A stretch of 55,493 nucleotides of DNA, taken from IMG/VR virus record IMGVR_UViG_2663763400_000006; one strand, given 5' to 3'. The DNA is from a virus. Lineage: Duplodnaviria > Heunggongvirae > Uroviricota > Caudoviricetes. A program made the translations under genes and the position numbers. Of the stretch, positions 20,679 through 51,450 are shown piece by piece. The number at the start of each line of letters is the position of its first letter. The first letter of the stretch is position 1. The notes under the pieces were generated by a model, which saw nothing but the letters and a program-made list of their open reading frames with translations, was not told the origin of the DNA and searched no databases.

Positions 20679-20839
20679 GAGGTTGCCCCGTATTCAGTGT
20701 CGCTGATTTGTATTGTCTGAAGTTGTTTTTACGTTAAGTTGATGCAGATCAATTAATACGATACCTGCGTCATAATTGATTATTTGACGTGGTTTGATGG
20801 CGTAGATGCACGTTGTGACATGTAGATGATAATTATTAT

Positions 20840-21060: not shown

Positions 21061-21066
21061 TGAGCA

Positions 21067-21586
21067 ATGGAAGTCAACAAAAAGCAGCTGGCTGACATTT
21101 TCGGTGCGAGTATCCGTACCATTCAGAACTGGCAGGAACAGGGAATGCCCGTTCTGCGAGGCGGTGGCAAGGGTAATGAGGTGCTTTATGACTCTGCCGC
21201 CGTCATAAAATGGTATGCCGAAAGGGATGCTGAAATTGAGAACGAAAAGCTGCGCCGGGAGGTTGAAGAACTGCTGCAGGCCAGCGAGACAGATCTCCAG
21301 CCAGGGACTATTGAGTACGAACGCCATCGACTTACGCGTGCGCAGGCCGACGCACAGGAGCTGAAAAATGCCAGAGACTCCGCTGAAGTGGTGGAAACCG
21401 CATTCTGTACTTTCGTGCTGTCGCGTATCGCAGGTGAAATTGCCAGTATTCTCGACGGGATCCCCCTGTCGGTGCAGCGGCGTTTTCCGGAACTGGAAAA
21501 CCGACATGTTGATTTCCTGAAACGGGATATCATCAAAGCCATGAACAAAGCAGCCGCGCTGGATGAACTGATACCGGGGTTGCTGA

Positions 21587-21612
<26 letters not shown>
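21067..21612 (+). CDS. nu1: Terminase small subunit Nu1
   Basis: 181 aa, MEVNKKQLADIFGASIRTIQNWQEQGMPVLRGGGKGNEVLYD... matches lambda Nu1 as recalled. Confidence 0.95.
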
Positions 21613-25293
<3,681 letters not shown>

Positions 25294-25313
<20 letters not shown>

Positions 25314-26613: not shown

Positions 26614-26622
26614 GGGATGTTT

Positions 26623-26955
26623 ATGACGAGCAAAGAAACCTTTACCCATTACCAGCCGCTGGGCAACAGTGACCCGGCTCATACCGCAACCGCGCCAGGC
26701 GGATTGAGTGCGAAAGCGCCTGCAATGACCCCGCTGATGCTGGACACCTCCACCCGTAAGCTGGTTGCGTGGGATGGCACCACCGACGGTGCTGCCGTTG
26801 GCATTCTTGCTGTTGCTGCTGACCAGACCAGCACCACGCTGACGTTCTACAAGTCCGGCACGTTCCGTTATGAGGATGTGCTCTGGCCGGAGGCTGCCAG
26901 CGACGAGACGAAAAAACGGACCGCGTTTGCCGGAACGGCAATCAGCATCGTTTAA
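26623..26955 (+). CDS. D: Head decoration protein D
   Basis: [43 protein letters not shown]... matches lambda D as recalled; AAGGGA Shine-Dalgarno. Confidence 0.9.
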
Positions 26956-26959
26956 CCTT

Positions 26960-26995
26960 ACCCTTCATCACTAAAGGCCGCCTGTGCGGCTTTTT
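26960..26995 (+). terminator. Hairpin plus T-tract between D and E
   Basis: ggccgcctgtgcggc followed by ttttttt. Confidence 0.4.
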
Positions 26996-27010
26996 TTACG
27001 GGATTTTTTT

Positions 27011-27256
27011 ATGTCGATGTACACAACCGCCCAGCTGCTGGCGGCAAATGAGCAGAAATTTAAGTTTGATCCGCTGTTTCTGCGTCTCTTTTTCCGTGAG
27101 AGCTATCCCTTCACCACGGAGAAAGTCTATCTCTCACAAATTCCGGGGCTGGTAAACATGGCGCTGTACGTTTCGCCGATTGTTTCCGGTGAGGTTATCC
27201 GCTCCCGTGGCGGCTCCACCTCTGAATTTACGCCGGGATATGTCAAGCCGAAGCAC
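27011..27256 (+). pseudogene. E: Major capsid protein E, 5' fragment truncated by an insertion
   Basis: MSMYTTAQLLAANEQKFKFDPLFLRLFFRESYPFTTEKVYLSQIPGLVNMALYVSPIVSGEVIRSRGGSTSEFTPGYVKPKH then diverges into 9 unrelated codons and a stop at 27286. Confidence 0.85.
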
Positions 27257-27365
27257 TTAGCATGGCTTTCTGAGGCTTTCGTGTAGTTGCTGGTTTTTAC
27301 ACTTAATCTTTTGATAATAAAGAATAAGTTTATCTGGTGCTTTCACTGAATTTTCCTCGTTATCT

Positions 27366-27403
27366 GTGTGTTGCAATCATCTCTGTATTGCAGCTTGTAT
27401 TGC
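27366..27403. repeat. TGTATTGCA-type direct repeats upstream of the island integrase (possible arm sites)
   Basis: ctgtgtgttgcaatcatctctgtattgcagcttgtattgc; a similar pair occurs near the right end at about 38014-38040. Confidence 0.4.
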
Positions 27404-27418
27404 TTTTTGGGGCTAAAA

Positions 27419-28654
27419 ATGGCTGGCGAGAACAAACTGAGCGACAAAGCGCTTAAAGGATATCTGGGGAAACCCAGAGAAAAGCAGATCACCATTGCTG
27501 ATGGAAAGGGGCTTTCTATTCGTGTGAGTACTAAAGGGGCTGTGAGCTTTGTTTTCTTCTACAGGTTAGCAGGTGGCCGGGCTGCTCCGGTCTGGCTAAC
27601 GTTGGGTAAATATCCTGATATGTCACTCAAACAGGCAAGGGAAAAGCGCGACGAGTGCCGTGGTTGGTTGGCTGACAAACGTGATCCGCGTATCCAGATT
27701 AAGATTCAGGCTGAAGAACGCTTAAAGCCGGTCACTGTGGAGGATGCACTAAATTACTGGTATGAAAATTACTGTAAGGTGCGTCGTAAAACTCATGCTG
27801 TAACGCTTGGCAGATTTCGAAAGCATATCTTTCCCTATATCGGTCATTTGCCCGTAAATGACACTCACCTATATGAATGGCTGGACTGTTTTGACCGAAT
27901 TAAACGTAATGCACCAGTTATGGCGGCGTATGTTTTTTCTGACACTAAATTAGCTCTTCGTTTTTGTCGGGTACGCCAGTACGCGACGTGTGATGCTTTA
28001 AAGGATTTGCGCATGAGTGATGTGGGGCAGATTGCAGGTAAGCGGGATCGGGTTCTGGATGAAGCCGAACTCGGCCAGCTCTGGAAGGCAATTTTTGTCG
28101 AGCCTGATTTAAAACTAATGTCTGAATACACGCGAAAAATGTTTGTGCTTTGTACAGTATTTGGATGTCGAATGAGTGAAGCCCGATTATCAGAATGGAG
28201 CGAATGGGATCTCGAAAGTTGGGTTTGGACTGTACCAAAAGATCACTCAAAAACTGGTGTTGAAATCGTCAGACCAGTACCTGAAATTCTACGACAGTGG
28301 GTAACGGATGTTCACGAAGAGACAAAACATACTGGTTATGTGCTGGGAAGTCTGCGAATTAGAGAAAGCGTAAGCAAGATTGGGGGGAAAATCGGTAAAC
28401 GTTTGGGCCATGAAAAACAATGGTCACTACACGACCTTAGAAGAACGCTATCTACTCATCTAAGTGATCTCGGTGTTGAATTTTATGTAGTAGAACAACT
28501 GTTAGGCCATGCGCTACCTGGCGTGGCAGGTGTTTACAACCGGAGTAAGTTTATGGCTAAAAAACTGGATGCTCTGGAACTCTGGACTACATATCTCAAT
28601 AGCATCGCAGGTGCTGATTCAAAAGTGACAATCCTCAAACAAAAGGTTGGTTAA
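27419..28654 (+). CDS. int: Island tyrosine integrase (P4/CP4-57 type)
   Basis: MAGENKLSDKALKG...GKGLSIRVSTKG N-terminus typical of P4-family integrases; C-terminal HDLRRT...LGHA...YNRSK catalytic motifs. Confidence 0.85.
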   Translation: MAGENKLSDKALKGYLGKPREKQITIADGKGLSIRVSTKGAVSFVFFYRLAGGRAAPVWLTLGKYPDMSLKQAREKRDECRGWLADKRDPRIQIKIQAEERLKPVTVEDALNYWYENYCKVRRKTHAVTLGRFRKHIFPYIGHLPVNDTHLYEWLDCFDRIKRNAPVMAAYVFSDTKLALRFCRVRQYATCDALKDLRMSDVGQIAGKRDRVLDEAELGQLWKAIFVEPDLKLMSEYTRKMFVLCTVFGCRMSEARLSEWSEWDLESWVWTVPKDHSKTGVEIVRPVPEILRQWVTDVHEETKHTGYVLGSLRIRESVSKIGGKIGKRLGHEKQWSLHDLRRTLSTHLSDLGVEFYVVEQLLGHALPGVAGVYNRSKFMAKKLDALELWTTYLNSIAGADSKVTILKQKVG

Positions 28655-28655
28655 C

Positions 28656-28883
28656 ATGAAAAAAATGGCAATTGTTGATAAAAAGGGTCTGGAGTACATT
28701 CCTAACATTGACCGAATGATCCGTGAGAAAGAATGTCGGGAGCTAACCACTCTTGCGAACAGCACACGCTGGAAGCTGGAGAAGGAAGGAAAATTTCCTA
28801 AGCGGATCAAGATTGGTTCCACTGCTGTTGCATATCGTCTTTCAGAAGTGCAGGCATGGATTCGAGGTGAGTGGGTAGTTTAA
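28656..28883 (+). CDS. alpA: AlpA-family excisionase/transcriptional regulator
   Basis: MKKMAIVDKKGLEYIPNIDRMIREKECRELTTLANSTRWKLEKEGKFPKRIKIGSTAVAYRLSEVQAWI, AlpA-like HTH; directly follows the integrase. Confidence 0.7.
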   Translation: MKKMAIVDKKGLEYIPNIDRMIREKECRELTTLANSTRWKLEKEGKFPKRIKIGSTAVAYRLSEVQAWIRGEWVV

Positions 28884-28952
28884 ATTATCTCAGAATAAAA
28901 TATTATGAATTACTGATTTGAGAATTTGTACTCAAATCAGTAATAACATTCT

Positions 28953-29489
28953 TTATAAGAGATTAAATCCAAATAAAGAGTAATCATATACCGGGGTGCA
29001 TTGCATTCCACTGAATATGCTGATGTTTTTTTCTGTTTCTATCCTTTTTTCAATAAGTTGTTGTATATTTTTACAGTACAATTTGTGTGTGATGTTATTA
29101 TCGTAAGCCTGATATAGCAACGTCAATGTTGACGCTAGGAAACATACAGATAAAATTAAAGTAACATATGCGGTTTTTTTATTTTTTGTCCATGATCTAT
29201 TTGTTTGTGAAATATAAAGAATTCTGATGTGGATAATGGTGAGAGACAATAGCAGGCCACTCAATAAAATAAGTATTGGGTTTGCGTATTTTATTAATGG
29301 TTGAGAGCAAAAAACTATTATAGCTCCTGTGACTGCGTATGAGAAAAAGGAGTAATTAAACTTCTTACTCCTTCTCTCAAGTATTTTAATTTCATCTTGT
29401 GTGGGGGTTTTAGATGCCTCTAATATAAGTTTATTGAATGTTTCTGTTATCTTGTTTTTTGTGTTTGTGGCTATTTTTTTTAGATTCAT
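28953..29489 (-). CDS. Unknown multi-pass membrane protein (island cargo)
   Basis: 178-aa ORF, extremely AT-rich, three to four hydrophobic helices; antisense to int and alpA. Confidence 0.5.
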   Translation of the reverse strand: MNLKKIATNTKNKITETFNKLILEASKTPTQDEIKILERRSKKFNYSFFSYAVTGAIIVFCSQPLIKYANPILILLSGLLLSLTIIHIRILYISQTNRSWTKNKKTAYVTLILSVCFLASTLTLLYQAYDNNITHKLYCKNIQQLIEKRIETEKNISIFSGMQCTPVYDYSLFGFNLL

Positions 29490-29839
29490 AGCATTCTAAC
29501 TCCCTTAACTTATTTATTACTTTCTCTTTATGATAAGAGAGGGGAATGACTTGGTAAAGTGATTTGTCATTAATAATGATAATCCTTGCGATAAATATTT
29601 CTGCAAGTTATTTATCTGTTTGTTGCTATCTTGTTAAGCGTTGGGTGTGGTTTATGTTTGGAGCGACTTTATTTAATCGTGATTTTATGGATTTATATTT
29701 ATATCCTGTAAGATAAGCGCATGTTAGTTCAGGAGTAGTGTCAGATAAAATTATTCGGAGTAGAACTACCTTTTCTGTTTATTGCCAGTATTTACATAGC
29801 AATGCGCCGTAGTTACTCACATCACGGCGCTGATACTAA

Positions 29840-30142
29840 TTATTCAGATTCTTTGGCTTTACGCCGCTGGAGTTCTTCACGAGCGACGGCTACGAGTTGC
29901 CCGATTTCCTCCGCTGCCTTGATGCCGATTTGTTCGACCTTAGCTAAGGCATCCAGTGAAGACACGAGGGGATTTTCTCCGCTTCCTTCTGCCTGGCGGC
30001 GGGCGATCTCACCGCGCATGGCGGTTACTATGAATCCGGCGTTGCTCTCGCCGTCCAGTTTTACGGATTCCATGCCCTCCATAACATCGTGGGGAACCCT
30101 GATCGTTGTCATTTGCGATTTTGCATTTTTGTATACAGACAT
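29840..30142 (-). CDS. Putative ribbon-helix-helix regulator (candidate island repressor)
   Basis: 100-aa ORF (MTTIRVPHDVMEGMESVKL...), divergent from the rightward island operon across a repeat-containing intergenic region. Confidence 0.4.
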   Translation of the reverse strand: MSVYKNAKSQMTTIRVPHDVMEGMESVKLDGESNAGFIVTAMRGEIARRQAEGSGENPLVSSLDALAKVEQIGIKAAEEIGQLVAVAREELQRRKAKESE

Positions 30143-30149
30143 AGTTAAT

Positions 30150-30260
30150 CACCAATTTGTTATGTGTATATCACTATACACAAAAGTGATATATAAAAAC
30201 ACTTGCAATGTATATCACCACAATATAATGTATATCTCACATTATGGTCGCTATGTATCT
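30150..30260. promoter_or_regulatory. Island divergent promoter/operator region with TGTATATCAC-type repeats
   Basis: tgtgtatatcactatacacaaaagtgatatataaaaacacttgcaatgtatatcaccacaatataatgtatatctcaca: four or more copies of TGTATATC(A/T)C in both orientations. Confidence 0.45.
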
Positions 30261-30350
30261 CACAATGATCGATTCATAAAAACGACGAAACCCGGCAGTG
30301 CGCGAACACTAACCGGGCTTCTAACCAAACCGTTAAACGAGGTAACGATT

Positions 30351-30716
30351 ATGGCTGGAACACAGCATACCCAAACTCACCCTAAATTTATATACACCTT
30401 TCTGGCACTACACCACGACCGCATGGCAGATGGAGCAACTACGGTACATGTAGCCGCTGACACGCTGGTTGATGCCCGCAAGATGGTTAAGGAGATGGGC
30501 TATACTGCGGCTTTCTGGAAAGGGCGTGAAGAAAACACGCTGTTTATTCAGAAATGCGAAAACAATTTCATCTGGCGTTTTATCGCCCTGAGTACGGCAC
30601 AACCGCGCGTGATTCACATCGTGGCCACCAGCGAACAGGAAGCCCGCCAGCAATCCCCGGCTGGTTGCGTGAGGGTATTCGCCGCCCGTATTCGTCAGGA
30701 GGTATGCCGTGCTTAA
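30351..30716 (+). CDS. Hypothetical protein, first gene of the rightward island operon
   Basis: 121-aa ORF beginning MAGTQHTQTHPKF; the ORF-track entry 29802..30716 is this gene with a spurious upstream extension. Confidence 0.4.
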   Translation: MAGTQHTQTHPKFIYTFLALHHDRMADGATTVHVAADTLVDARKMVKEMGYTAAFWKGREENTLFIQKCENNFIWRFIALSTAQPRVIHIVATSEQEARQQSPAGCVRVFAARIRQEVCRA

Positions 30717-30894
30717 AACCTTCCGTGTATTTGCCCGAGCGGTTAACCCACGAGGCCACACAATTGGTATCACTCAGAACGTGAAGGCTGTTAATGTTCA
30801 GACGGCTATTGCTGTGGTGAGAAGCGAATCATCAGAATATGGCTTATCACAAGTCATTATTTCAGCAGTGTATGAATTAAAAGAGGTGCATTAA
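30709..30894 (+). CDS. Hypothetical small protein
   Basis: 61-aa ORF, tightly packed with neighbours. Confidence 0.3.
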   Translation: MLKTFRVFARAVNPRGHTIGITQNVKAVNVQTAIAVVRSESSEYGLSQVIISAVYELKEVH

Positions 30895-31085
30895 TGCAGG
30901 AAATTACATTACACGAAGCCGCTGAACGTGCGCACCAGACAGAAATTATTTGCCGCCTTCTTGAGGTATACCCGAACAAAATTACAGATGCTGATATATC
31001 CGCACTGGCGAGCCTACTGGCGCGTCTTTCGGGAAGTGTCGCTAGTTTTTTGATTGAGGAAGAAAGTAAGCTGGTGGGGGATTAA
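30894..31085 (+). CDS. Hypothetical small protein
   Basis: 63-aa ORF, start overlaps the previous stop. Confidence 0.3.
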   Translation: MQEITLHEAAERAHQTEIICRLLEVYPNKITDADISALASLLARLSGSVASFLIEEESKLVGD

Positions 31086-31307
31086 ATGAATACAGAACGG
31101 GAAGTCTTTTTTAAATTGTTAGCATGTGCAGAAAGTTCATTAACTTTAAATAATTCAGCAAAAGCAATATTAAATATGTGGCTTGATTGCATAAATGACA
31201 ATGAAGATGCAAATATTGCTTATGGCCTGTTGTCACTTATTGATGAAGCAGCAGAAAAACTCAATGACGCAATAAATAGTGCCCTGTTATCAAATAAGTC
31301 GAGTTAA
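31086..31307 (+). CDS. Hypothetical small protein
   Basis: 73-aa acidic ORF. Confidence 0.3.
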   Translation: MNTEREVFFKLLACAESSLTLNNSAKAILNMWLDCINDNEDANIAYGLLSLIDEAAEKLNDAINSALLSNKSS

Positions 31308-31324
31308 GTCGAGGAATAAATAAT

Positions 31325-31624
31325 ATGGAAATGAAAAATTCTGGCTTTATTGCCAGCGGCCCCGCTCGGCCTGAATTTATGAACGGCGATATTTACCGCG
31401 ATAAATACGGCGGCACGGTAACGATTAAAGGCGTGGCAGAACGGCGCATCACTTACCGCCGTGAGGGGTATAGCTATGACTGCGTGATGCCTGTTTATCA
31501 GTTCCGGCGTGATTTTTCCCTGGTATATGCCGCACCTCGCAGTAAGCCCACCAGCAGGGAAAAAGCGCGGGGAAACATCCAGAAAATGAAAAGCATGATT
31601 AACGCATTCAGGGGCAAAAAATGA
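31325..31624 (+). CDS. Hypothetical small protein
   Basis: 99-aa ORF overlapping the primase start. Confidence 0.3.
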   Translation: MEMKNSGFIASGPARPEFMNGDIYRDKYGGTVTIKGVAERRITYRREGYSYDCVMPVYQFRRDFSLVYAAPRSKPTSREKARGNIQKMKSMINAFRGKK

Positions 31625-33372
31625 AACTGGCACCGAACTTAAAAAAACAGCCACGCGACAGACTGACAGAGGTAATCATCTTTGCAGGTAGTGATGCGTG
31701 GAGCCATGCGAAAGAGTGGCAGGAATGGGCGGGTAAACATATTGCCGCCGACGATGTGCCGCCTGTCGTGCTGGCTGATGAGCAACTGAAAAACATCATC
31801 GATTACCGGATCATTGATGAAGATCGTCAGTGTGTGCGTGTTTACCGCGCAGGACATATCACAGAGCACAGCATGACGCAGATTGTTACGTTACTGGCTG
31901 TGGCTGGAGTGAAGACCGTACACGAATACGCGGGGATTACTGACACCAGCCCCGTGGATTTATCCGACCAGTTGCCGCGACTCAAAGAGGAATGCGAGCG
32001 TGGGGAAAGTCTGGTGCTTAATCTTCCGACGAAGCAAAAGGCGCAACTTTCACAGATGGCAGACAGTGAACGTGCACAACTACTTGCCGATCGCTTTGAT
32101 GGTGTGTGTGTTCATGCAGAAAGTGAAATCGTCCACGTATGGCGCGGCGGGGTATGGTGTCCGGTCAGCACAATGGAGCTGAGCCGCGAAATGGTGGCGA
32201 TCTATTCAGAGCACAGGGCCACGTTCAGCAAACGTGTAATCAATAACGCCGTGGAAGCGTTAAAAGTTATTGCCGACCCCATGGGGGAGCCGTCCGGTGA
32301 TTTACTACCGTTCACTAATGGTGTGCTTAACCTGAAAACGGGGGATTTTTCTCCGCACTTACCGGAGCACTGGAGCACCACGCACAATGGCATTGAGTAC
32401 ACGCCACCAGTAGCAGGGGAAAACATCCGCGATAATGCGCCAAATTTCCATAAATGGCTTGAACATGCTGCAGGAAAAGACCCGCGCAAGATGATGCGTA
32501 TATGTGCCGCGTTATACATGATTATGGCGAACCGCTACGACTGGCAGATGTTCATTGAGGCCACCGGAGACGGGGGAAGCGGTAAGAGTACATTTACCCA
32601 TATTGCCACCCTGCTTGCTGGCAAACAGAACACCGTAAGCGCAGAGATGACATCACTCGATGATGCAGGAGGGCGCGCGCAGGTTGTCGGGAGTCGTCTT
32701 ATCGTCCTTGCCGATCAGCTGAAATATACGGGGGAAGGCACGGGCATCAAGAAAATCACGGGAGGCGATCCCGTTGAAATTAACCCGAAATATGAGAAGC
32801 GATTCACGACGATAATAAGGGCGGTGGTACTGGCAACCAATAACGACCCGATGATCTTTACCGAACGGGCCGGAGGTGTGTCACGCCGTCGGGTGATTTT
32901 CCGGTTCGACAACATTGTAAGGGAGGACGAAAAAGACAAGGAATTACCGGAAAAGATAGCGGCAGAAATCCCCGTAATTATCCGCCGCTTGCTGGCTAAT
33001 TTTGCTGACCCTGAAAAGGCACGGGCTTTATTACTGGAACAGCGTGACGGTGATGAAGCTCTGGCAATAAAGCAGCAAACGGATCCGGTTGTTGAGCTTT
33101 GCGCGGCGCTGGAGTTTCTGGAGGAAGCTCGTGGGCTAATGATGGGCGGTGGTGGTGACACCGTGAAGTACACGACCAGAAACAGCCTTTACCGTGTCTA
33201 TATGGCCTTCATGGCATATACAGGAAAGGGGAAATGTTTGAGCGTGAATGAGTTCGGAAAGGCTATGAGGTCAGCGGCGAAAGTTTACGGATATGAATAT
33301 ATTACGCGAAAAGTTAAGGGAGTCACGCAGACCAACGCAACGACTACTGATGATTGCGATGCGTTTTTATAA
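31621..33372 (+). CDS. Primase-helicase replication protein (D5_N / P4 alpha-like)
   Basis: 583 aa with Walker A GDGGSGKST and downstream helicase-like motifs. Confidence 0.8.
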   Translation: MKLAPNLKKQPRDRLTEVIIFAGSDAWSHAKEWQEWAGKHIAADDVPPVVLADEQLKNIIDYRIIDEDRQCVRVYRAGHITEHSMTQIVTLLAVAGVKTVHEYAGITDTSPVDLSDQLPRLKEECERGESLVLNLPTKQKAQLSQMADSERAQLLADRFDGVCVHAESEIVHVWRGGVWCPVSTMELSREMVAIYSEHRATFSKRVINNAVEALKVIADPMGEPSGDLLPFTNGVLNLKTGDFSPHLPEHWSTTHNGIEYTPPVAGENIRDNAPNFHKWLEHAAGKDPRKMMRICAALYMIMANRYDWQMFIEATGDGGSGKSTFTHIATLLAGKQNTVSAEMTSLDDAGGRAQVVGSRLIVLADQLKYTGEGTGIKKITGGDPVEINPKYEKRFTTIIRAVVLATNNDPMIFTERAGGVSRRRVIFRFDNIVREDEKDKELPEKIAAEIPVIIRRLLANFADPEKARALLLEQRDGDEALAIKQQTDPVVELCAALEFLEEARGLMMGGGGDTVKYTTRNSLYRVYMAFMAYTGKGKCLSVNEFGKAMRSAAKVYGYEYITRKVKGVTQTNATTTDDCDAFL

Positions 33373-33389
33373 AAAATGGCAATGGTTAT

Positions 33390-33640
33390 CTACCTTGTCT
33401 ACCTGACTGAAATAAAATACTTTTATTTCAATGTATTAATGCAGGTAGATAACTATTTTTCACTGTCTACCTGTTATCTACCTTATCTACCCATTTTTGT
33501 AGACAGGTAAGGAGACGGGTAGAGATGAGGTAGACAGCTATTTGGGGCTGTCTACCTCCCTGAAACCCGCGCCATTACTGGCCTGATAACTAATCAGGTA
33601 GACAAGGTAGACAAGGTGGTGGTGCACAAAAAACTTTTTA
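33390..33640. repeat. Island replication origin iterons
   Basis: Ten or more copies of GGTAGACA / TGTCTACC in both orientations immediately downstream of the primase-helicase gene. Confidence 0.65.
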
Positions 33641-33661
33641 AACGAGGGGGTAAAAATAAAA

Positions 33662-33904
33662 ATGCACACATCAGGAAAACTGAACAAACATATAAAGCCA
33701 CATTACCGCGCCCTTGATATGGCTGAACACTGGCTAAGGGTGGCGATTAAGGCAATAGACCGCAACGCCGGGGAAGGATACGCGAAAGCACATCCCGAAC
33801 TGATAAGCGCATTCATGACAACGGCGGCTGCAAACTTTGCCACGCTGACCGAACGGGAGATTGCCGAAGCGGAGGAAGTGACAACCATCAATATTAAGTC
33901 CTGA
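33662..33904 (+). CDS. Hypothetical protein
   Basis: 80-aa ORF between the origin and ssb. Confidence 0.3.
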   Translation: MHTSGKLNKHIKPHYRALDMAEHWLRVAIKAIDRNAGEGYAKAHPELISAFMTTAAANFATLTEREIAEAEEVTTINIKS

Positions 33905-33915
33905 GAGCAGGCAGC

Positions 33916-34365
33916 ATGACGGCGCAAATAGCAGCTTACGGGCGGCTGGTGGACGACCCACAGGTAAAACATACCAGCAAGGGAACACCCATGACACTGG
34001 CACGGATGGCGGTATCTTTGCCATGCAGCCAGGCAGATGACGGAACGGCGACGATGTGGTTATCTGTGCTGGCGTTTGGCAGACAAGCCGACGCGCTGGC
34101 AAAGCATCACAAAGGCGAACTCCTGAGCGTGGCGGGTAATATGCAGGTGAGCCAGTGGAGCGGACAGAACGGGGAAACGCGGCAGGGCTGGCAGGTTATC
34201 GCAGACAGCGTAATCAGTGCCAGAACGGTGCGACCGGGCGGCAAAAAAGGTCAACAGGGGCAGGCTACTGATGCACTGAACAGAGCAAAACAACAGGCAG
34301 ATCAGCAAGGAAGCCATCCACCAGTGGGAGATAATGAGCAATGGGGAGATGATATTCCGTTTTAA
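33916..34365 (+). CDS. ssb: Single-stranded DNA-binding protein
   Basis: OB-fold-like N-terminal domain and Gly/Gln-rich tail ending in the acidic motif DDIPF. Confidence 0.7.
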   Translation: MTAQIAAYGRLVDDPQVKHTSKGTPMTLARMAVSLPCSQADDGTATMWLSVLAFGRQADALAKHHKGELLSVAGNMQVSQWSGQNGETRQGWQVIADSVISARTVRPGGKKGQQGQATDALNRAKQQADQQGSHPPVGDNEQWGDDIPF

Positions 34366-34575
34366 ATATTGCCAATAAAAAAGGCCGGAAAAAATATATT
34401 TTCCGGCATGCTACATAAATCCCGACCAAAGGGAGTGAAGATATTAACACTAATTATCCGCGCTGAAGTTGTCATCCCAAAACTTTATACAACATTGCAC
34501 TCGGTTGCATGTGTTAGCATGACAAATATCGGTGATAGCATATATCCACAATTATTTTTAATGAATGTAAAGAGG

Positions 34576-35622
34576 ATGAGTATGGTTGATTTATATTCGC
34601 CTGCCCAGCTTGTGCAGGTGGCTAATGCAGAAGAGGTGCAAAAAAAATTAAATGCATTGTTTACCAGTTTGTTTTTCACTCGCTCGGTAATGTTTGAATC
34701 AAGAGACATTATTCTTGATACAATCGACGATCCAAATATCCCAATTGCAGCGTTTTGTTCTCCTATGGTGGGTAGTAAAGTTTCACGTGACGAAGGGTAC
34801 GAATCAAAGACAATTCGTCCAGGCTATATGAAGCCGAAAAGCAGCATTGATCCAAATAAGTTAGCTGTGCGCCCTGCTGGTGTATCACCTGAGCAATACA
34901 ATGCTTTTGGAGCGCGTAATATTAAAGTTAAACAGGCGATTGTAAATCAGGCTAAAGCTATTCGTGCACGTATTGAATGGCTTGCCGTTCAGGCAATCAC
35001 AACGGGGAAAAATATCATTGAGGGCGATGGCATTGAACGCTATGAACTGGACTGGAATATAAAACCACAAAATATTATCACGCAGTCCGGCGGTGCTGAG
35101 TGGTCAGGTAAGGATAAAGAAACTTTTGATCCAAATGATGATATTGAGAGCTACGCAGAATTTAGTGAGGGCGTCACTAATATCATCATTATGGGCGGTA
35201 ATGTATGGAAGAAATACCGTTCATTCAGAGCGATAAAAGAGGCTCTGGATACCCGTCGTGGTTCTAATTCCGAACTGGAAACGGCCCTTAAAGACCTTGG
35301 TGATTCGGTGAGTTTTAAAGGGTATATGGGCGATGTTGCGATTGTTGTATACAGCGGGCGTTATACCGACGAGGACGGAACTGAAAAACATTTCCTTGAT
35401 CCTGATTTGATGGTGCTTGGCAATACGGCTCTTCAGGGGATTGTCGCCTATGGCGGTATTCAGGATCCGGAGCTAATCCGAATGGGGCTGACTAAAGCCG
35501 AACTTGCACCGAAAAACTATATTGTGCCTGGTGATCCGGCTATTGAATATGTGCAGACACATTCAGCACCACAGCCAATACCGGCCCGCATCAATCGTTT
35601 TGTTACCGTTCGCATTGGCTAA
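34576..35622 (+). CDS. Island-encoded major capsid protein homologue (divergent gpE)
   Basis: TQSGGAEWSGKDKETFDPNDDIESYAEF...RSFRAIKEALDTRRGSNSELETALKDLG...YMGDVAIVVYSG aligns with lambda E (TQSGGTEWSKRDKSTYDPTDDIEAYAL...FRSFKAVKEKLDTRRGS.SELETAVKDLG...GDVAIVVYSG); ATG 34576 with AAGAGG Shine-Dalgarno. Confidence 0.8.
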   Translation: MSMVDLYSPAQLVQVANAEEVQKKLNALFTSLFFTRSVMFESRDIILDTIDDPNIPIAAFCSPMVGSKVSRDEGYESKTIRPGYMKPKSSIDPNKLAVRPAGVSPEQYNAFGARNIKVKQAIVNQAKAIRARIEWLAVQAITTGKNIIEGDGIERYELDWNIKPQNIITQSGGAEWSGKDKETFDPNDDIESYAEFSEGVTNIIIMGGNVWKKYRSFRAIKEALDTRRGSNSELETALKDLGDSVSFKGYMGDVAIVVYSGRYTDEDGTEKHFLDPDLMVLGNTALQGIVAYGGIQDPELIRMGLTKAELAPKNYIVPGDPAIEYVQTHSAPQPIPARINRFVTVRIG

Positions 35623-35631
35623 GGGGGAGCA

Positions 35632-35973
35632 ATGGCTACTCATTACACTGAACTCATGGCTGGCACTGAAGCACTGGTGACTACGCTGGGGATATTTTCA
35701 GCTAATAAAGGGGTAATTCCTGCATTTACGCCACTGATGCAGGAAGATGCAACAGGTGCACTGGTGGTATGGGATGGTTCGAGCGTAGGTAAAGCGGTTT
35801 ATGTTTCCGCTGTACAAATCGACACCGCGAAAAAAACACAGGCTCAGGTCTATAAGACAGGTGTCTTAAATGTTGATGCTCTGAACTGGCCTGAGTCTGT
35901 AAAAGAACTGTCAGTAAAGATTGCAGCGTTTGTTGGCTCAGGTATTTCTGTTCAGCCGCTGGCTCGTGTGTAA
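35632..35973 (+). CDS. Island-encoded decoration protein homologue (gpD-like)
   Basis: FTPLMQEDATGALVVWDGSSVGKAV and VYKTGVLNVDALNWPE align with lambda D ([41 protein letters not shown]). Confidence 0.65.
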   Translation: MATHYTELMAGTEALVTTLGIFSANKGVIPAFTPLMQEDATGALVVWDGSSVGKAVYVSAVQIDTAKKTQAQVYKTGVLNVDALNWPESVKELSVKIAAFVGSGISVQPLARV

Positions 35974-35984
35974 AGGGGGATACA

Positions 35985-36368
35985 ATGCAGAATCATTACA
36001 ATGACCTTAAGCCAATTGCCGAAATGATGTATCCGGATCCAGCAGTAGAGGAATTAAAGGCTATTGCTGACAAAATGCGTTTAAGCGAGCGTCTTGTTGA
36101 TATGAATCAGGTGATGGAACTTACAACCCTGAGTCGTCGTACACTGCTAAACCTTGAAGCACGTGGAGAGTTCCCCGAACGCGTGCAGGTTACGGAAGGG
36201 CGTAAGGCCTGGTATTTAAGCGAAGTGATCGACTGGATAAACAATATTCCGCGCGCTTCTGAATATTGCCGCGTACCTGTCCCAAAAAAGCCAGATGCGG
36301 CGCTATGCCTCAAGATTGAGCGTGTACGCCGCAATGCGCGGGATGGTCGCTATAAGCTGATTGGTTGA
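35985..36368 (+). CDS. AlpA-like HTH protein (second copy in the island)
   Basis: LTTLSRRTLLNLEARGEFPERVQVTEGRKAWYLSEVIDWI resembles the AlpA-family HTH signature. Confidence 0.45.
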   Translation: MQNHYNDLKPIAEMMYPDPAVEELKAIADKMRLSERLVDMNQVMELTTLSRRTLLNLEARGEFPERVQVTEGRKAWYLSEVIDWINNIPRASEYCRVPVPKKPDAALCLKIERVRRNARDGRYKLIG

Positions 36369-36379
36369 TGAAATTAGGG

Positions 36380-36470
36380 CCCGTTCTGGCTGGCGGGTCC
36401 TTTCCGGCGATCCAGAACGTTACGGGGCGGCGACCTCGCGGGTTTTCGCTATTTATGAGCATTTTTAGGG
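36380..36470. other. Second cos site (island), cosN conserved with the prophage cos
   Basis: gggtcctttccggcgatccagaacgttacggggcggcgacctcgcgggttttcgctatttatga is nearly identical to 20840-20910; downstream (cosB) sequence differs. Confidence 0.75.
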
Positions 36471-36584
36471 GACTGGTGGTGGTTTTGTTGTTCGCTATAT
36501 CTGTATGAATAATAAGAGAAAAACACAATCAACACACCAACCTGAAACAGTAATTAAGTTGTGGTATCAATGAAATTGCACCTG

Positions 36585-37112
36585 ATGAACAAAAAAAACA
36601 TGGCAAAAAGTTGCCGTGTAAGCGCCACTGCGTTCGATAAGTGGGGAGTGATTCCCGTCGAGCGTAAGGGCCGCGAGGCGTTTTATGATGTCGCCAGTGT
36701 AATAGATAATCGGGTTAACAATGCAATCAGCCAGATTACAAACGAAACGGGCGAGATTGATGATGATGAACTCCTACGAGTCAGGATCAGATTGCTGACA
36801 GCACAGGCAGAGGCGCAGGAGCTTAAAAACGAGCGCGAACGCGGCGACGTTATTGATACAGCGTTTTGTATATACGTGCTTTCAAAACTGGCGAGTCAGA
36901 TTTCTTCAATCATGGACAGCCTGCCGCTTGCCATGACAAGGAAGTTTCCCGACATGAAGCCGTCTATGCTGGATGGACTGAAAAAAGAAGTTATCAGAGC
37001 CTGTAACGCATGCGCAAAACTTGACGAAAACATACCGCTGATGCTGTCCGATTATCTGATGGAAACTGCCGGAAACGTACCGGATAAGTTGCAGCTGAAT
37101 AAAGATAAGTAA
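36585..37112 (+). CDS. Island small terminase homologue (Nu1-like)
   Basis: LLTAQAEAQELKNERERGDVIDTAFCIYVLSKLASQISSIMDSLPLAMTRKFPDMK aligns with prophage Nu1 LTRAQADAQELKNARDSAEVVETAFCTFVLSRIAGEIASILDGIPLSVQRRFPELE; start taken at MNKKNMAK. Confidence 0.75.
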   Translation: MNKKNMAKSCRVSATAFDKWGVIPVERKGREAFYDVASVIDNRVNNAISQITNETGEIDDDELLRVRIRLLTAQAEAQELKNERERGDVIDTAFCIYVLSKLASQISSIMDSLPLAMTRKFPDMKPSMLDGLKKEVIRACNACAKLDENIPLMLSDYLMETAGNVPDKLQLNKDK

Positions 37113-37123
37113 CGTAGTACGCT

Positions 37124-37405
37124 ATGACTGAATCCGAAATACTGCGATTAATCCGCCGTGCTTGTGGAATCAGCAAGCAGCATGACGAACAGGCCACGCA
37201 GCCGGACAGCGTGATCGCCGAAAATTACGCGCGTGTTGTTGCTGATGTGATGCGCCGTGATGGTATTGAGCTTAACGGCGTGGATATGCGCGACATACGG
37301 ATCAGATTCCTTGAGTTGCTGGCATACCGTCGCCGTTCTCAACAACGAAGGGAGAGCGCGAAAAACACTTATCAGTGGAAGAAGCCGGAACGGTTGCGGC
37401 GGTAG
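37124..37405 (+). CDS. Hypothetical protein
   Basis: 93-aa basic ORF following the terS-like gene. Confidence 0.3.
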   Translation: MTESEILRLIRRACGISKQHDEQATQPDSVIAENYARVVADVMRRDGIELNGVDMRDIRIRFLELLAYRRRSQQRRESAKNTYQWKKPERLRR

Positions 37406-38141
37406 ATTCCTGATATTCAGGAAAACCACGAATCCGGGGGTTTTACTGGCGCGGTGTACACGGTGGAACGTATAGCGTTACCTGACTTATTGCATTGTAA
37501 AAAGTTGAAAGGCACGGCCTGTAAGATGGGATGTGGTGAGTAGTTTAAAGCTACCCGCAAATTCTTTCGTTGTGCTGGCACAGGCGGTTAAACCGTCGGT
37601 AACTGGATAATCCCCACTGGGGGAAAAGCTGGCTACATCCCTCACATCTGAGGACTGATAACGCAAAATTGCGTTGGCTGGCAGAGTGCAAATTTGCACG
37701 ATGGCCTAACCCATTGATTCTTTCGAAAACCCCCATTGGGGGAGAACGGGGGAATAAACCTGACTCATTGATTTTTCCACAATCCTTAATTTGAGGAAGC
37801 TGGATAGTTGCACTACCCAAAAAGTGCAGTACCCACATAGCTGCTTAATAGCGTTTATTTTTTCCGCACACCTCAAATCTGAGAAGGCCGGAATGATGAC
37901 ATGGCAGGATTATGATTCCTTGATTTCAAGGAGTCCTCCAGTGTGAAAATGAAATTATCTGGGCTGGTGGGTGAGTTGCTGATCTGCAACTCGGCTATGA
38001 AACTTAATAATCGAACAGCATGTAAATTCATTTCTGTGTATTGCAGCATGTATTGCAACATAGTCATTCTGGTAGAGATTATGCTCTATTTTTCCTCTTA
38101 TATCATTCACATACTTACGTCATTGACTCATGTAGCCGAAG

Positions 38142-38924
38142 CATGAGGTGAATCCGCAGATGACCCTGCGTCGCCTGCCGGATGAAGATCCGCAGAATCT
38201 GGCGGACCCGGCTTACCGCCGCCGTCGCATCATTATGCAGAACATGCGTGACGAAGAGCTGGCCATTGCCCAGGTCGAAGAGATGCAGGCAGTTTCTGCC
38301 GTGCTTAAGGGCAAATACACCATGACCGGTGAAGCTTTCGATCCGGTTGAGGTGGATATGGGCCGCAGTGCGGCCAACAACATCACGCAGTCCGGCGGCA
38401 CGGAGTGGAGCAAGCGTGACAAGTCCACGTATGACCCGACCGACGATATCGAAGCCTACGCGCTGAACGCCAGCGGAGTGGTGAATATCATCGTGTTTGA
38501 TCCGAAAGGCTGGGCGCTGTTCCGTTCCTTCAAAGCCGTCAAGGAGAAGCTGGATACTCGTCGCGGCTCTCATTCCGAGCTGGAGACAGCGGTGAAAGAC
38601 CTGGGCAAAGCGGTGTCCTACAAGGGGATGTATGGCGATGTGGCCATCGTCGTGTATTCCGGACAGTACGTGGAAAACGGCGTCAAAAAGAACTTCCTGC
38701 CGGACAACACGATGGTGCTGGGGAACACTCAGGCACGCGGTCTGCGCACCTATGGCTGCATTCAGGATGCGGACGCACAGCGCGAAGGCATTAACGCCTC
38801 TGCCCGTTACCCGAAAAACTGGGTGACCACCGGCGATCCGGCGCGTGAGTTCACCATGATTCAGTCAGCACCGCTGATGCTGCTGGCTGATCCTGATGAG
38901 TTCGTGTCTGTACAACTGGCGTAA
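38142..38924 (+). pseudogene. E: Major capsid protein E, 3' fragment
   Basis: HEVNPQMTLRRLPDEDPQNLADPAYRRRRIIMQNMRDEE... to the lambda E C-terminus; continues the 5' fragment exactly once the insert is removed. Confidence 0.85.
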
Positions 38925-38965
38925 TCATGGCCCTTCGGGGCCATTTTCTCTCTGTGGAGGAGTTC

Positions 38966-39364
38966 ATGACGAAAGATGAACTGATTGCCCGTCTTCAGGA
39001 GCTGGGTGAGCAACTGAACCGCGATGTCAGTTTGACGGGAACGAAAGAAGAACTGGCGCTTCGTGTGGCAGAGCTGGAAGAAGAGCTTGATGACACGGAT
39101 GAAACTGCCGGTCAGGACACCCCTCTCAGCCGGGAAAATGTGCTGACCGGGCATGAAAATGAGGTGGTATCAGCGCAGCCGGATACCGTGATTCAGGATA
39201 CGGCTGAACTGGTCACGGTTGTGGCACTGGTGACGCTGCATACTGATGCACTTCACGCCACGCGGGATGAACCTGTGGCATTTGTGCTGCCGGGAACGGC
39301 GTTCCGTGTCTCTGCCGGTGTGGCAGCTGAAATGACAGAGCGCGGCCTGGCCAGAATGCAATAA
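38966..39364 (+). CDS. FI: DNA packaging protein FI
   Basis: MTKDELIARLQELGEQLNRDVSLTGTKEELALRVAELEEELDDTDE... matches lambda FI as recalled. Confidence 0.85.
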   Translation: MTKDELIARLQELGEQLNRDVSLTGTKEELALRVAELEEELDDTDETAGQDTPLSRENVLTGHENEVVSAQPDTVIQDTAELVTVVALVTLHTDALHATRDEPVAFVLPGTAFRVSAGVAAEMTERGLARMQ

Positions 39365-41923: not shown

Positions 41924-42313
41924 ATGGGGCGACCCGACTGGCGTGCCATGCTTGCCGGGATGTCATCCACGGAGTATGCCGACTGGCACCGCTTTTACAG
42001 TACCCATTATTTTCATGATGTTCTGCTGGATATGCACTTTTCCGGGCTGACGTACACCGTGCTCAGCCTGTTTTTCAGCGATCCGGATATGCATCCGCTG
42101 GATTTCAGTCTGCTGAACCGGCGCGAGGCTGACGAAGAGCCTGAAGATGATGTGCTGATGCAGAAAGCGGCAGGGCTTGCCGGAGGTGTCCGCTTTGGCC
42201 CGGACGGGAATGAAGTTATCCCTACTTCCCCGGATGTGGCGGACATGACGGAGGATGACGTAATGCTGATGACAGTATCAGAAGGGATCGCAGGAGGAGT
42301 CCGGTATGGCTGA
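41924..42313 (+). CDS. T: Tail assembly protein T (made as G-T fusion by -1 frameshift)
   Basis: ORF in the -1 frame relative to G, ending just inside H; lambda gpGT architecture. Confidence 0.8.
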   Translation: MGRPDWRAMLAGMSSTEYADWHRFYSTHYFHDVLLDMHFSGLTYTVLSLFFSDPDMHPLDFSLLNRREADEEPEDDVLMQKAAGLAGGVRFGPDGNEVIPTSPDVADMTEDDVMLMTVSEGIAGGVRYG

Positions 42314-44867
42314 ACCGGTAGGCGATCTGGTCGTTGATTTGAGTCTGGATGCGGCCAGATTTGACGAGCAGATGGCCAGAGTCAGGCGTCATTTTTCCGG
42401 TACGGAAAGTGATGCGAAAAAAACAGCGGCAGTCGTTGAACAGTCGCTGAGCCGACAGGCGCTGGCTGCACAGAAAGCGGGGATTTCCGTCGGGCAGTAT
42501 AAAGCTGCCATGCGTATGCTGCCTGCGCAGTTCACTGACGTGGCCACGCAGCTTGCAGGCGGGCAAAGTCCGTGGCTGATCCTGCTGCAACAGGGTGGTC
42601 AGGTGAAGGACTCCTTCGGCGGGATGATCCCCATGTTCAGGGGGCTTGCCGGTGCGCTCACCCTGCCGATGGTCGGGGCCACCTCGCTGGCGGTGGCGAC
42701 CGGTGCGCTGGCGTATGCCTGGTATCAGGGCAACTCAACCCTGTCCGATTTCAACAAAACGCTGGTCCTTTCCGGCAATCAGTCGGGGCTGACGGCAGAT
42801 CGCATGCTGGTCCTGTCCAGAGCCGGGCAGGCGGCAGGGCTGACGTTTGACCAGACCAGCGAGTCACTCAGCGCACTGGTTAAGGCGGGGGGAAGCGGTG
42901 AGGCTCAGATTGCGTCCATCAGCCAGAGTGTGGCGCGTTTCTCCTCTGCATCCAGCGTGGAGGTGGACAAGGTCGCTGAAGCCTTCGGGAAGCTGACCAC
43001 AGACCCGACGTCGGGGCTGACGGCGATGGCACGCCAGTTCCATAACGTGACGGCGGAGCAGATTGCGTATGTTGCTCAGTTGCAGCGTTCCGGCGATGAA
43101 GCCGGGGCATTGCAGGCGGCGAACGAGGCCGCAACGAAAGGGTTTGATGACCAGACCCGCCGCCTGAAAGAGAACATGGGCACGCTGGAGACCTGGGCAG
43201 ACAGGACTGCGCGGGCATTCAAATCCATGTGGGATGCGGTGCTGGATATTGGTCGTCCTGATACCGCGCAGGAGATGCTGATTAAGGCAGAGGCTGCGTT
43301 TAAGAAAGCAGACGACATCTGGAATCTGCGCAAGGATGATTATTTTGTTAACGATGAAGCGCGGGCGCGTTACTGGGATGACCGTGAAAAGGCCCGTCTT
43401 GCGCTTGAAGCCGCCCGAAAGAAGGCTGAGCAGCAGACTCAACAGGACAAAAATGCGCAGCAGCAGAGCGATACCGAAGCGTCACGGCTGAAATATACCG
43501 AAGAGGCGCAGAAGGCTTACGAACGGCTGCAGACGCCGCTGGAGAAATATACCGCCCGTCAGGAAGAACTGAACAAGGCACTGAAAGACGGGAAAATCCT
43601 GCAGGCGGATTACAACACGCTGATGGCGGCGGCGAAAAAGGATTATGAAGCGACGCTGAAAAAGCCGAAACAGTCCGGCGTGAAGGTGTCTGCGGGCGAT
43701 CGTCAGGAAGACAGTGCTCATGCTGCTCTGCTGACGCTTCAGGCAGAACTCCGGACGCTGGAGAAGCATGCCGGAGCAAATGAGAAAATCAGCCAGCAGC
43801 GCCGGGATTTGTGGAAGGCGGAGAGTCAGTTCGCGGTACTGGAGGAGGCGGCGCAACGTCGCCAGCTGTCTGCACAGGAGAAATCCCTGCTGGCGCATAA
43901 AGATGAGACGCTGGAGTACAAACGCCAGCTGGCTGCGCTTGGCGACAAGGTTACGTATCAGGAGCGCCTGAACGCGCTGGCGCAGCAGGCGGATAAATTC
44001 GCACAGCAGCAACGGGCAAAACGGGCCGCCATTGATGCGAAAAGCCGGGGGCTGACTGACCGGCAGGCAGAACGGGAAGCCACGGAACAGCGCCTGAAGG
44101 AACAGTATGGCGATAATCCGCTGGCGCTGAATAACGTCATGTCAGAGCAGAAAAAGACCTGGGCGGCTGAAGACCAGCTTCGCGGGAACTGGATGGCAGG
44201 CCTGAAGTCCGGCTGGAGTGAGTGGGAAGAGAGCGCCACGGACAGTATGTCGCAGGTAAAAAGTGCAGCCACGCAGACCTTTGATGGTATTGCACAGAAT
44301 ATGGCGGCGATGCTGACCGGCAGTGAGCAGAACTGGCGCAGCTTCACCCGTTCCGTGCTGTCCATGATGACAGAAATTCTGCTTAAGCAGGCAATGGTGG
44401 GGATTGTCGGGAGTATCGGCAGCGCCATTGGCGGGGCTGTTGGTGGCGGCGCATCCGCGTCAGGCGGTACAGCCATTCAGGCCGCTGCGGCGAAATTCCA
44501 TTTTGCAACCGGAGGATTTACGGGAACCGGCGGCAAATATGAGCCAGCGGGGATTGTTCACCGTGGTGAGTTTGTCTTCACGAAGGAGGCAACCAGCCGG
44601 ATTGGCGTGGGGAATCTTTACCGGCTGATGCGCGGCTATGCCACCGGCGGTTATGTCGGTACACCGGGCAGCATGGCAGACAGCCGGTCGCAGGCGTCCG
44701 GGACGTTTGAGCAGAATAACCATGTGGTGATTAACAACGACGGCACGAACGGGCAGATAGGTCCGGCCGCTCTGAAGGCGGTGTATGACATGGCCCGCAA
44801 GGGTGCCCGTGATGAAATTCAGACACAGATGCGTGATGGTGGCCTGTTCTCCGGAGGTGGACGATGA
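42306..44867 (+). CDS. H: Tape measure protein H
   Basis: 853 aa, alpha-helical and Ala/Gln-rich, matches lambda H as recalled. Confidence 0.9.
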   Translation: MAEPVGDLVVDLSLDAARFDEQMARVRRHFSGTESDAKKTAAVVEQSLSRQALAAQKAGISVGQYKAAMRMLPAQFTDVATQLAGGQSPWLILLQQGGQVKDSFGGMIPMFRGLAGALTLPMVGATSLAVATGALAYAWYQGNSTLSDFNKTLVLSGNQSGLTADRMLVLSRAGQAAGLTFDQTSESLSALVKAGGSGEAQIASISQSVARFSSASSVEVDKVAEAFGKLTTDPTSGLTAMARQFHNVTAEQIAYVAQLQRSGDEAGALQAANEAATKGFDDQTRRLKENMGTLETWADRTARAFKSMWDAVLDIGRPDTAQEMLIKAEAAFKKADDIWNLRKDDYFVNDEARARYWDDREKARLALEAARKKAEQQTQQDKNAQQQSDTEASRLKYTEEAQKAYERLQTPLEKYTARQEELNKALKDGKILQADYNTLMAAAKKDYEATLKKPKQSGVKVSAGDRQEDSAHAALLTLQAELRTLEKHAGANEKISQQRRDLWKAESQFAVLEEAAQRRQLSAQEKSLLAHKDETLEYKRQLAALGDKVTYQERLNALAQQADKFAQQQRAKRAAIDAKSRGLTDRQAEREATEQRLKEQYGDNPLALNNVMSEQKKTWAAEDQLRGNWMAGLKSGWSEWEESATDSMSQVKSAATQTFDGIAQNMAAMLTGSEQNWRSFTRSVLSMMTEILLKQAMVGIVGSIGSAIGGAVGGGASASGGTAIQAAAAKFHFATGGFTGTGGKYEPAGIVHRGEFVFTKEATSRIGVGNLYRLMRGYATGGYVGTPGSMADSRSQASGTFEQNNHVVINNDGTNGQIGPAALKAVYDMARKGARDEIQTQMRDGGLFSGGGR

Positions 44868-47235: not shown

Positions 47236-50719
<3,484 letters not shown>

Positions 50720-51440: not shown

Positions 51441-51450
51441 TGGAGTGGAT

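Follow-up and report, generated by a model that had tools for sequence, protein, structure and literature searches.

The window analysed here, a 55,493-nucleotide stretch of DNA from a virus of the class Caudoviricetes (Duplodnaviria; Heunggongvirae; Uroviricota; IMG/VR record IMGVR_UViG_2663763400_000006), contains a helper prophage and, inserted in the capsid gene E of that prophage, a phage-inducible chromosomal island (PICI). Each of the two elements has a cohesive-end (cos) site upstream of a small-terminase gene, cos1 before the helper gene encoding Nu1 and cos2 before an island terS. A sequence-only reading of the window had placed the two sites at about 20840-20910 and 36390-36460, where both are indeed present, and had proposed that the island keeps the helper cleavage site while using its own small terminase for recognition; it had missed both the position of the island inside gene E and the broken portal gene of the helper. 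The features on which the argument turns are given below, with cos base pairs (bp) counted from the first cohesive-end base as bp 1, lengths of proteins in amino acids (aa), and ORF standing for open reading frame.

20848-20854, plus strand: cosQ of cos1 in the helper prophage, GGGTCCT at bp -30 to -24 (direct reading)
20878-20889, plus strand: cosN of cos1, cohesive end GGGCGGCGACCT, an exact match identical to the lambda cohesive end
20930-21042, plus strand: lambda-type cosB of cos1, with R3 at 20930-20941 (plus), I1 at 20956-20968 (minus), R2 at 20986-20997 (minus) and R1 at 21031-21042 (plus)
21067-21612, plus strand: helper small terminase Nu1, 181 aa (PF07471 at 332 bits, full profile)
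21587-23512, plus strand: helper large terminase gpA/TerL, 641 aa, an intact ORF annotated as terminase large subunit in an identical genome
36395-36401, plus strand: cosQ of cos2, GGGTCCT at bp -30 to -24 (direct reading), invariant in 11 distinct island cos sites
36425-36436, plus strand: cosN of cos2, cohesive end GGGCGGCGACCT, identical to cos1 and invariant across islands
36437-36459, plus strand: spacer of cos2, bp 13-35, the I2 region in lambdoid cos sites and the end of the block shared with the helper (bp 13-34 identical to cos1 at 22/22)
36475-36489, plus strand: R3' candidate GGTGGTGGTTTTGTT, cos bp 51-65, the lambda R3 position; proposed binding site of the island TerS
36530-36543, minus strand: possible R2', CAACACACCAACCT on the top strand, cos bp 106-119, in the lambda R2 position and orientation and GT-rich on the bottom strand
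36570-37112, plus strand: island small terminase TerS, 180 aa, with an N15-type DNA-binding domain (DBD) of putative winged helix-turn-helix fold and a Nu1-family central and C-terminal half; PGAP 'terminase small subunit'

A common cos core followed by different cosB regions

The 12-nt cohesive-end sequence occurs exactly twice in the 55.5-kb window, in the same orientation and at a spacing of 15,547 bp; when up to one mismatch is tolerated, chance would give 0.22 matches, and two matches were reached in 0 of 100 shuffles. A repeat search paired 20846-20948 with 36393-36495 without gaps (81% identity over 103 nt), and a base-by-base, in-register alignment gave 60 identical positions out of 64 between cosQ and bp +34. 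By segment, the agreement amounts to 26/30 from bp -30 to -1 (cosQ included), 12/12 in cosN and 22/22 at bp 13-34, all four mismatches falling at bp -10 to -6, between cosQ and cosN. Beyond bp 34, identity drops to 7/13, 13/23 and then 21/60. The conserved core with about 60 bp around it, and the divergence downstream of this block, are thus as the sequence-only reading had described them. The cosQ motif stands in both sites where lambda has it (bp -30 to -24; PMC9026076 Table S1), and the interval at bp 13-35 corresponds to the position at which I2 is annotated in phage 21. A third, partial match of 27 nt (42761-42787) lies within a tape-measure ORF (42306-44867), has no cosN and was taken as a chance occurrence.

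A map of R sites and IHF motifs, the check suggested by that earlier reading, separates the two sites clearly. In pattern searches, the lambda R-box core CGTTTCCKTTCT was found near cos1 at the three R positions listed above, in the canonical R3(+)/R2(-)/R1(+) order and with an IHF consensus (one mismatch) between R3 and R2, whereas no R-box core was found near cos2. A search of the cosB region of cos2 for inverted repeats found none, and the promoters and terminators predicted around cos2 did not exceed what shuffled sequence would give. Cos2 combines a cosQ and cosN of the lambda type with a non-lambda cosB, here termed cosB'. The R3' candidate, within which lie the bases GGTGGTGG, occurs once only in the window and is GT-rich on the top strand, as is the R3 of phage N15, GAGGTTGTTGTT. 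The cosB of N15 consists of a single GT-rich R3, with no I1, R2 or R1 (PMC9026076), an arrangement that fits both the N15-type DBD of the island TerS and a cos2 devoid of R repeats and IHF site. N15 and the island have the core TTGTTGTT in common, at a distance from cosN that is about 9 bp greater in the island.

The island small terminase and the terS cassette

The island terS lies directly downstream of cos2, its ATG being at cos bp 146. The encoded protein matches PF07471 at 87 bits (cut-off 30) and aligns to the helper Nu1 with 38% identity over residues 3-181 (E 6e-38). Its DBD is about 62% identical to that of N15 TerS over 45 residues, as counted on the alignment, and the two have four indels in common relative to lambda and 21, together with a near-invariant TAFDKWGV.PV segment. 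The part of Nu1 responsible for oligomerisation has a homologue in the central region of the protein (RIRLLTAQAEAQELKN...TAFC.YVLS), and the tail LDE.IP..LS.Y is as in lambda and N15, whereas phage 21 is without this motif. A profile of the TerS family matched residues 1-98 of lambda TerS in the RppC-TerS complex (6hn7_B, E 0.0065) and gave no match to the RppC chain; a phmmer search of the island TerS against PDB sequences returned no Nu1 or Rpp match. The likeness to N15 comprises the DBD of TerS, the top-strand GT-rich R3 with no I1, R2 or R1, and a partner TerL of the lambda family, the helper TerL being 87% identical to N15 TerL over 640 aa. N15 is, however, a complete phage with terL next to terS, whereas the island has no terL and the only such gene is that of the helper (21587-23512); moreover, N15 TerS closely resembles lambda Nu1 in its C-terminal half (62% identity overall), whereas the corresponding half of the island TerS is divergent from either (42-48% overall).

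Among about 5.8 billion proteins searched, 199 relatives of the island TerS were recovered, 75-94% identical in E. coli and about 60% identical in Citrobacter/Enterobacter; a single-protein scan of genome contigs with the island TerS found no relatives. All homologues examined sit in a PICI late module of the order E'-D'-AlpA-like-cos-terS, in islands that are either embedded in a prophage E gene (L006-L010) or chromosomal at cspD/clpS, abgR/smrA or roxA/phoQ. For a comparative footprint, 11 distinct island cos sites from E. coli and from Citrobacter/Enterobacter-type contigs, with TerS identity as low as about 60%, were aligned in register. Four fixed blocks are separated by divergent sequence: cosQ, TACG joined to GGGCGGCGACCTCGCG, CGCTATTTATGAG (cos bp 23-35, invariant across islands) and GGTGGTGGTKTTGTT. 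The last of these, at bp ~52-66, occupies the lambda R3 position and is kept in 10 of the 11 sites despite diverged flanks, and the R2' candidate is partly kept in register across islands as AAYAYACCMACYT (bp ~106-120). No deposited phage carries the island terS at the DNA level, phage records matching only the cosQ-cosN block of 73-80 bp.

In the PICI EcCICFT073 (Fillol-Salom et al. 2018, 2019; Murialdo & Feiss 2022), the cos site likewise combines a helper-like cosQ/cosN with an unrelated cosB (PMC6092414, PMC6739421, PMC9026076), which stands directly upstream of a packaging-specificity gene, and the island has the same backbone as the window island, including E', D' and a 93-aa ORF downstream. 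The specificity protein in that system is Rpp, an adaptor of 139-154 aa that heterodimerises with the helper TerS (PMC6739421, PMC9026076) and is proposed to need it, being without the TerL-binding C-terminus (PMC9026076). EcCICFT073 RppA (144 aa) is such an adaptor lacking the TerL-binding tail, whereas the window protein is a full-length TerS of the Nu1 family; identification of the latter as an Rpp was rejected, given its 180 aa against 139-154, no meaningful alignment to RppA or RppC, and the presence of a Nu1-type C-terminal half.

EcCICFT073 (L018) and a TerS-type island (L013) are found at one and the same chromosomal site, with 94.9% identity extending over the capsid genes as far as cos bp +40; they are unrelated across cosB and rppA in the one and cosB' and terS in the other, and become homologous again downstream. 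The left boundary of this swap coincides with the onset of divergence between the two cos sites of the window. It follows that cosB is inherited as one unit with the specificity gene, the stretch from cosQ to bp ~35 being the common part. The 93-aa ORF is present downstream of rppA in EcCICFT073 as well and therefore lies outside the swapped cassette. Megablast searches of 5,426 complete E. coli genomes found the terS cassette in at least 181 and any match to the RppA cassette in 175, 53 of which cover at least 80% of the query.

Two further details of these islands deserve mention. The element at the R3 position of EcCICFT073 cos1, ACACCACCACCAC (L018 11559-11625), is the reverse complement of the GGTGGTGGT repeat, which stands at the R3 position in all TerS-type islands although Rpp and N15-type TerS cannot be aligned; it reads (CAC)4 in EcCICFT073 and (GGT)3-4 in window-type islands, the same repeat on opposite strands. 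In addition, a second, inverted cos lies just downstream of rppA or terS (L018 ~12264-12340, minus strand; L013 7685-7758, phoQ relatives), whereas the window island has none and, with terS stopping at 37112 and the next ORF starting at 37124, has no room for one.

Proposed packaging of the island and competing explanations

Embedding of a PICI in a helper has been described for the helper-embedded PICI (HE-PICI) '11capE' in prophage '50icd' of E. coli NRG857c (Tommasini, Mageeney & Williams 2023, PMC10111431), and 201 such elements were reported at the gene E site. The same study described a cos-like sequence common to satellite and helper, stated that the satellite lacks terS, showed excision of both composite and satellite with no virions detectable, proposed that late-zone genes had been captured from helpers, and noted that the whole composite exceeds the lambda packaging limit (PMC10111431). 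The statement about terS is explained by 11capE of NRG857c keeping only about 15 Nu1 codons, and a text search of the supplements of that paper for Nu1, TerS and Rpp found nothing. The window island resembles 11capE in its identical insertion point in gene E with the 10-bp attachment (att) core AGCCGAAGCA, in its co-orientation with the helper and in its gene order (int, AlpA, Bro/YlcI zone, DUF4222-primase-ori-SSB, E', D', AlpA-like, cos). The packaging slot, in contrast, differs: in NRG857c it holds a near-intact lambda-type cosB (R3/R2/R1), about 15 Nu1 codons fused to unrelated sequence, and HEPN/DUF262 genes, and the cohesive end of the satellite, GGGCGTCAGGCG, differs from the GGGCGGCGACCT of its helper (L015 28060-28300 versus 12920-13140), whereas the window island shows the opposite pattern, combining a cosN identical to that of its helper with a foreign cosB' and a complete terS. 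The location of the helper differs as well: in the strain identical to the window it lies at argU/DLP12, not at icd. Judged by these features, the window island is a different variant from the founding 11capE.

It seems fairly likely that cos2 is a working packaging site of the embedded PICI, at which its own TerS recognises cosB' and recruits the helper TerL. The corresponding proposal of the sequence-only reading gains support from comparative evidence, namely TerS homology, the DBD, the footprint and the cassette. From the anatomy of the island, its conservation pattern, its cassette structure and its protein homologies, we infer DNA binding, TerL recruitment, cleavage at cos2 and the length of the packaged unit as follows. 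Cos2 would retain what the helper TerL needs, that is, cosQ for termination, cosN for nicking and the spacer at bp 13-35, while in place of the helper cosB (R3-I1-R2-R1) it would have a different recognition region, in which GGTGGTGGTTTTGTT occupies the R3 position, possibly accompanied by a second site in inverted orientation. The N15-type DBD would confer a DNA specificity different from that of the helper Nu1, and the Nu1-family central and C-terminal half could plausibly recruit the helper gpA/TerL directly, the latter being presumably the nuclease and motor acting at both cos sites. Upon induction, the island would excise, with gene E restored, and replicate from its own primase and origin; TerS bound to cosB' would then position the helper TerL at cosN, which TerL would nick. 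Packaging would proceed rightwards, from terS round to the alpA-like gene, and would end at a later cos2 of the concatemer via the conserved cosQ and cosN. Four island units amount to 43.6 kb and would fit a lambda-size head, as has been reported of EcCICFT073 concatemers (PMC10111431 with reference to PMC6092414).

Such a system would resemble SaPI1 and SaPIbov1, in which the satellite's own small terminase redirects the helper large terminase to satellite DNA. These islands are packaged by a headful (pac) mechanism and have unrelated TerS families, whereas the window island system is of the cos type, and the satellite must therefore also keep the helper signals for cleavage and termination. 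More generally, both SatelliteFinder and the generic PICI model count terS among the core components of these islands (de Sousa et al. 2023, PMC10085698). Capsid-forming PICIs (bioRxiv 10.1101/2022.09.08.507074) likewise have their own capsid-protein and small-terminase genes and also encode terL, portal, protease and head-tail connectors (PMC10085698); classification of the window island among them was rejected, none of these last genes being in its gene set. The general idea of an island that keeps the cleavage site and has its own recognition is the standard PICI model (PMC6739421, PMC9026076, PMC10085698), and embedding has been published (PMC10111431). What appears not to be described in the literature searched is a full-length Nu1-family TerS with an N15-type DBD and a matching cosB' element, allelic to the rpp cassette.

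Several observations count against this interpretation. The helper portal gene B (23712-25313) has an internal stop at codon 157 (~24180-24182) and is a PGAP pseudogene in the identical genome; because of this stop, the helper is probably unable to make heads alone, and the composite in this strain probably needs another helper to make them. No IHF consensus within one mismatch is present at 36437-36570 of cos2, and the R2' element is a weak candidate proposed from cross-island conservation only. [quoted passage not shown] The AlphaFold2 model of the island TerS is of modest confidence (pLDDT 63.5), with an N-terminus of the form helix-helix-hairpin-long helix, and a Foldseek search of this model against PDB gave nothing at E<0.001, the best matches being weak ones to MerR-type winged helix-turn-helix domains. 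Binding of TerL by the island TerS is not assured either, given its divergence from the helper Nu1 (38-42% identity overall, lower in the DBD, with a C-terminal extension of 10-13 aa). Finally, since N15 terminase can package lambda DNA (PMC9026076), an N15-type DBD may not necessarily discriminate against the helper cosB.

Among the competing explanations, the best supported is that the island TerS acts like Rpp, mixing with the helper Nu1 via its central domain, titrating it from cos1 and directing the complex to cos2, in which case the helper TerS would be required. This is the only mechanism demonstrated for cos-type PICIs of E. coli (PMC6739421); the terS and rppA cassettes fill the same slot in near-identical islands, and the central region of the island TerS is clearly homologous to the Nu1 oligomerisation region. 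However, the island protein has the full Nu1-family C-terminal half and tail motif, unlike the 139-154-residue Rpp, and gives no meaningful alignment with RppA or RppC, and we regard adaptor-type action as unlikely.

Still less probable is the use of cos2 by the unmodified helper terminase, for which the conserved cosQ and cosN would suffice, leaving the island TerS dispensable, either active in interference only or a functionless captured late gene. The founding 11capE is consistent with such a scenario in being without any complete terS, as is the proposal that HE-PICI late-zone genes are captures from helpers (PMC10111431). Yet the terS ORF is intact, conserved over 199 relatives down to about 60% identity and always beside cos in the contexts examined, and R3' is kept alongside terS while neighbouring bases drift, which would be unexpected of a dispensable relic. 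That cos2 is an assembly artefact, or a helper cos copied recently by accident and without any role, is scarcely credible, since the high local identity to the helper site (60/64) is all that speaks for it, whereas the flanks differ on both sides, four complete genomes, assembled independently, have the arrangement at 100% identity and many more have close variants of it, and the cos/terS module also occurs in islands that do not adjoin any helper cos; a duplication of cos during assembly was rejected on the same grounds.

The presence of both sites in one prophage also bears on packaging before excision. Lambda can package DNA of about 78-105% of 48.5 kb. In an unexcised concatemer, the distance from cos1 to cos2 is 15.5 kb and that from cos2 to the next cos1 about 40-47 kb. 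The length of the composite prophage is only bracketed, at about 56-63 kb, because of rearrangement at the right end of the helper, where ompT and methyltransferase segments are duplicated and fragments of tail-fibre-assembly genes and of an integrase occur (L016, NZ_CP147608 3484000-3497000). A start at cos1 would fall outside the lambda range, as cos2 is met after 15.5 kb and the next cos1 only after about 56-63 kb. It is conceivable, though rather doubtful, that the island TerS with the helper TerL starts at cos2 before excision and stops at the next cos1, the intervening 40-47 kb being a lambda-size headful, so that the two cos sites would differ in initiation and have termination signals in common. 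If so, the packaged hybrid would consist of the right end of the island and the helper genes for tail, recombination, immunity, replication and lysis, without the helper terminase and head genes and the island replication module; the helper would be sabotaged in cis, and helper and flanking DNA would be mobilised. Related to this, an island TerS able to dispense with the helper TerS would open any helper with a TerL of the lambda/N15 type to exploitation, whatever the type of its cosB.

These findings refine known biology and reveal no new kind of system. The Rpp adaptor is the only worked-out mechanism for enterobacterial cos-type satellites, to which the terS cassette represents a widespread alternative. 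The near-isogenic rppA and terS islands, together with the helper and satellite cos sites standing side by side, constitute a natural domain-swap experiment, which appears to mark the part of cos read by TerL (cosQ to bp ~+35) as opposed to that read by TerS (from bp ~+50) and yields a testable candidate sequence for R3'.

The island, its helper and accessory features

The remaining features of the island and its ends are listed here.

27011-27256: N-terminal fragment of gene E (Pfam Phage_cap_E positions 1-78)
27246-27255, plus strand: attL core AGCCGAAGCA in helper gene E, a 10-bp identity block as for 11capE (PMC10111431)
27256-38143, plus strand: helper-embedded PICI, 10,888 bp, from Pfam, PGAP of the identical genome, att cores and iterons
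27304-27316 and 37707-37719, minus strand: perfect IHF consensus sites just inside both island ends
27380-27403 and 38033-38056: doubled motif TCTSTGTATTGCAGCWTGTATTGC, just inside both island ends
27419-28654: P4-type integrase
31325-31624: DUF4222
31621-33372: D5-type primase
33385-33565: direct repeats resembling iterons (GTTATCTACCTTRTCTACC, AGGTAGA..CTGTCTACCT), following the primase gene
33916-34365: SSB
34582-35622: capsid protein E' (lambda capsid E homologue)
35632-35973: decoration protein D' (lambda decoration D homologue)
35985-36368: AlpA-like protein
37124-37405, plus strand: 93-aa ORF downstream of terS, with no Pfam match and 81% DNA identity to CFT073 L018 12374-12654
38134-38143, plus strand: attR core AGCCGAAGCA, its flank being the C-terminal gene E fragment
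38136-38924: C-terminal fragment of gene E (Pfam Phage_cap_E positions 94-328)

The order of zones is that of a PICI, with int/AlpA, a Bro zone, a replication zone (primase, ori, SSB) and a late zone. The iterons likely represent the replication origin of the island, and the IHF sites at the ends, together with the doubled motif, which is also mentioned for HE-PICIs (PMC10111431), are probably integrase arm or intasome sites. The island carries its own E' and D' while interrupting gene E of the helper. Accessory regions vary between near-identical islands in two places (window 28953-30716) and hold defence-type genes; next to the integrase, some E. coli islands have DUF2971 and one island of Enterobacter type has a TIR-domain gene, and DUF262 and HEPN genes lie downstream of the cos/terS slot in NRG857c. 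A search of 20000-39000 against Rfam returned no RNA family. A gene of the YlcI/YnfO family is present in the island (29840-30142, minus strand), and another lies just upstream of cos1 (20484-20678, minus strand), accompanied by an iss/bor-type serum-survival lipoprotein gene (19828-20121, minus strand).

In the helper, the region of the tail-tip gene J (47239-50719) is split into two overlapping ORFs of 835 and 351 aa, whereas NRG857c has a single ORF of about 1,130 aa; this may reflect a frameshift and a further sign of helper decay. A 793-aa ORF (51445-53826), annotated as a prophage tail-fibre protein in the identical genome, contains a 189-bp tandem duplication (83% identity) at 51946-52323.

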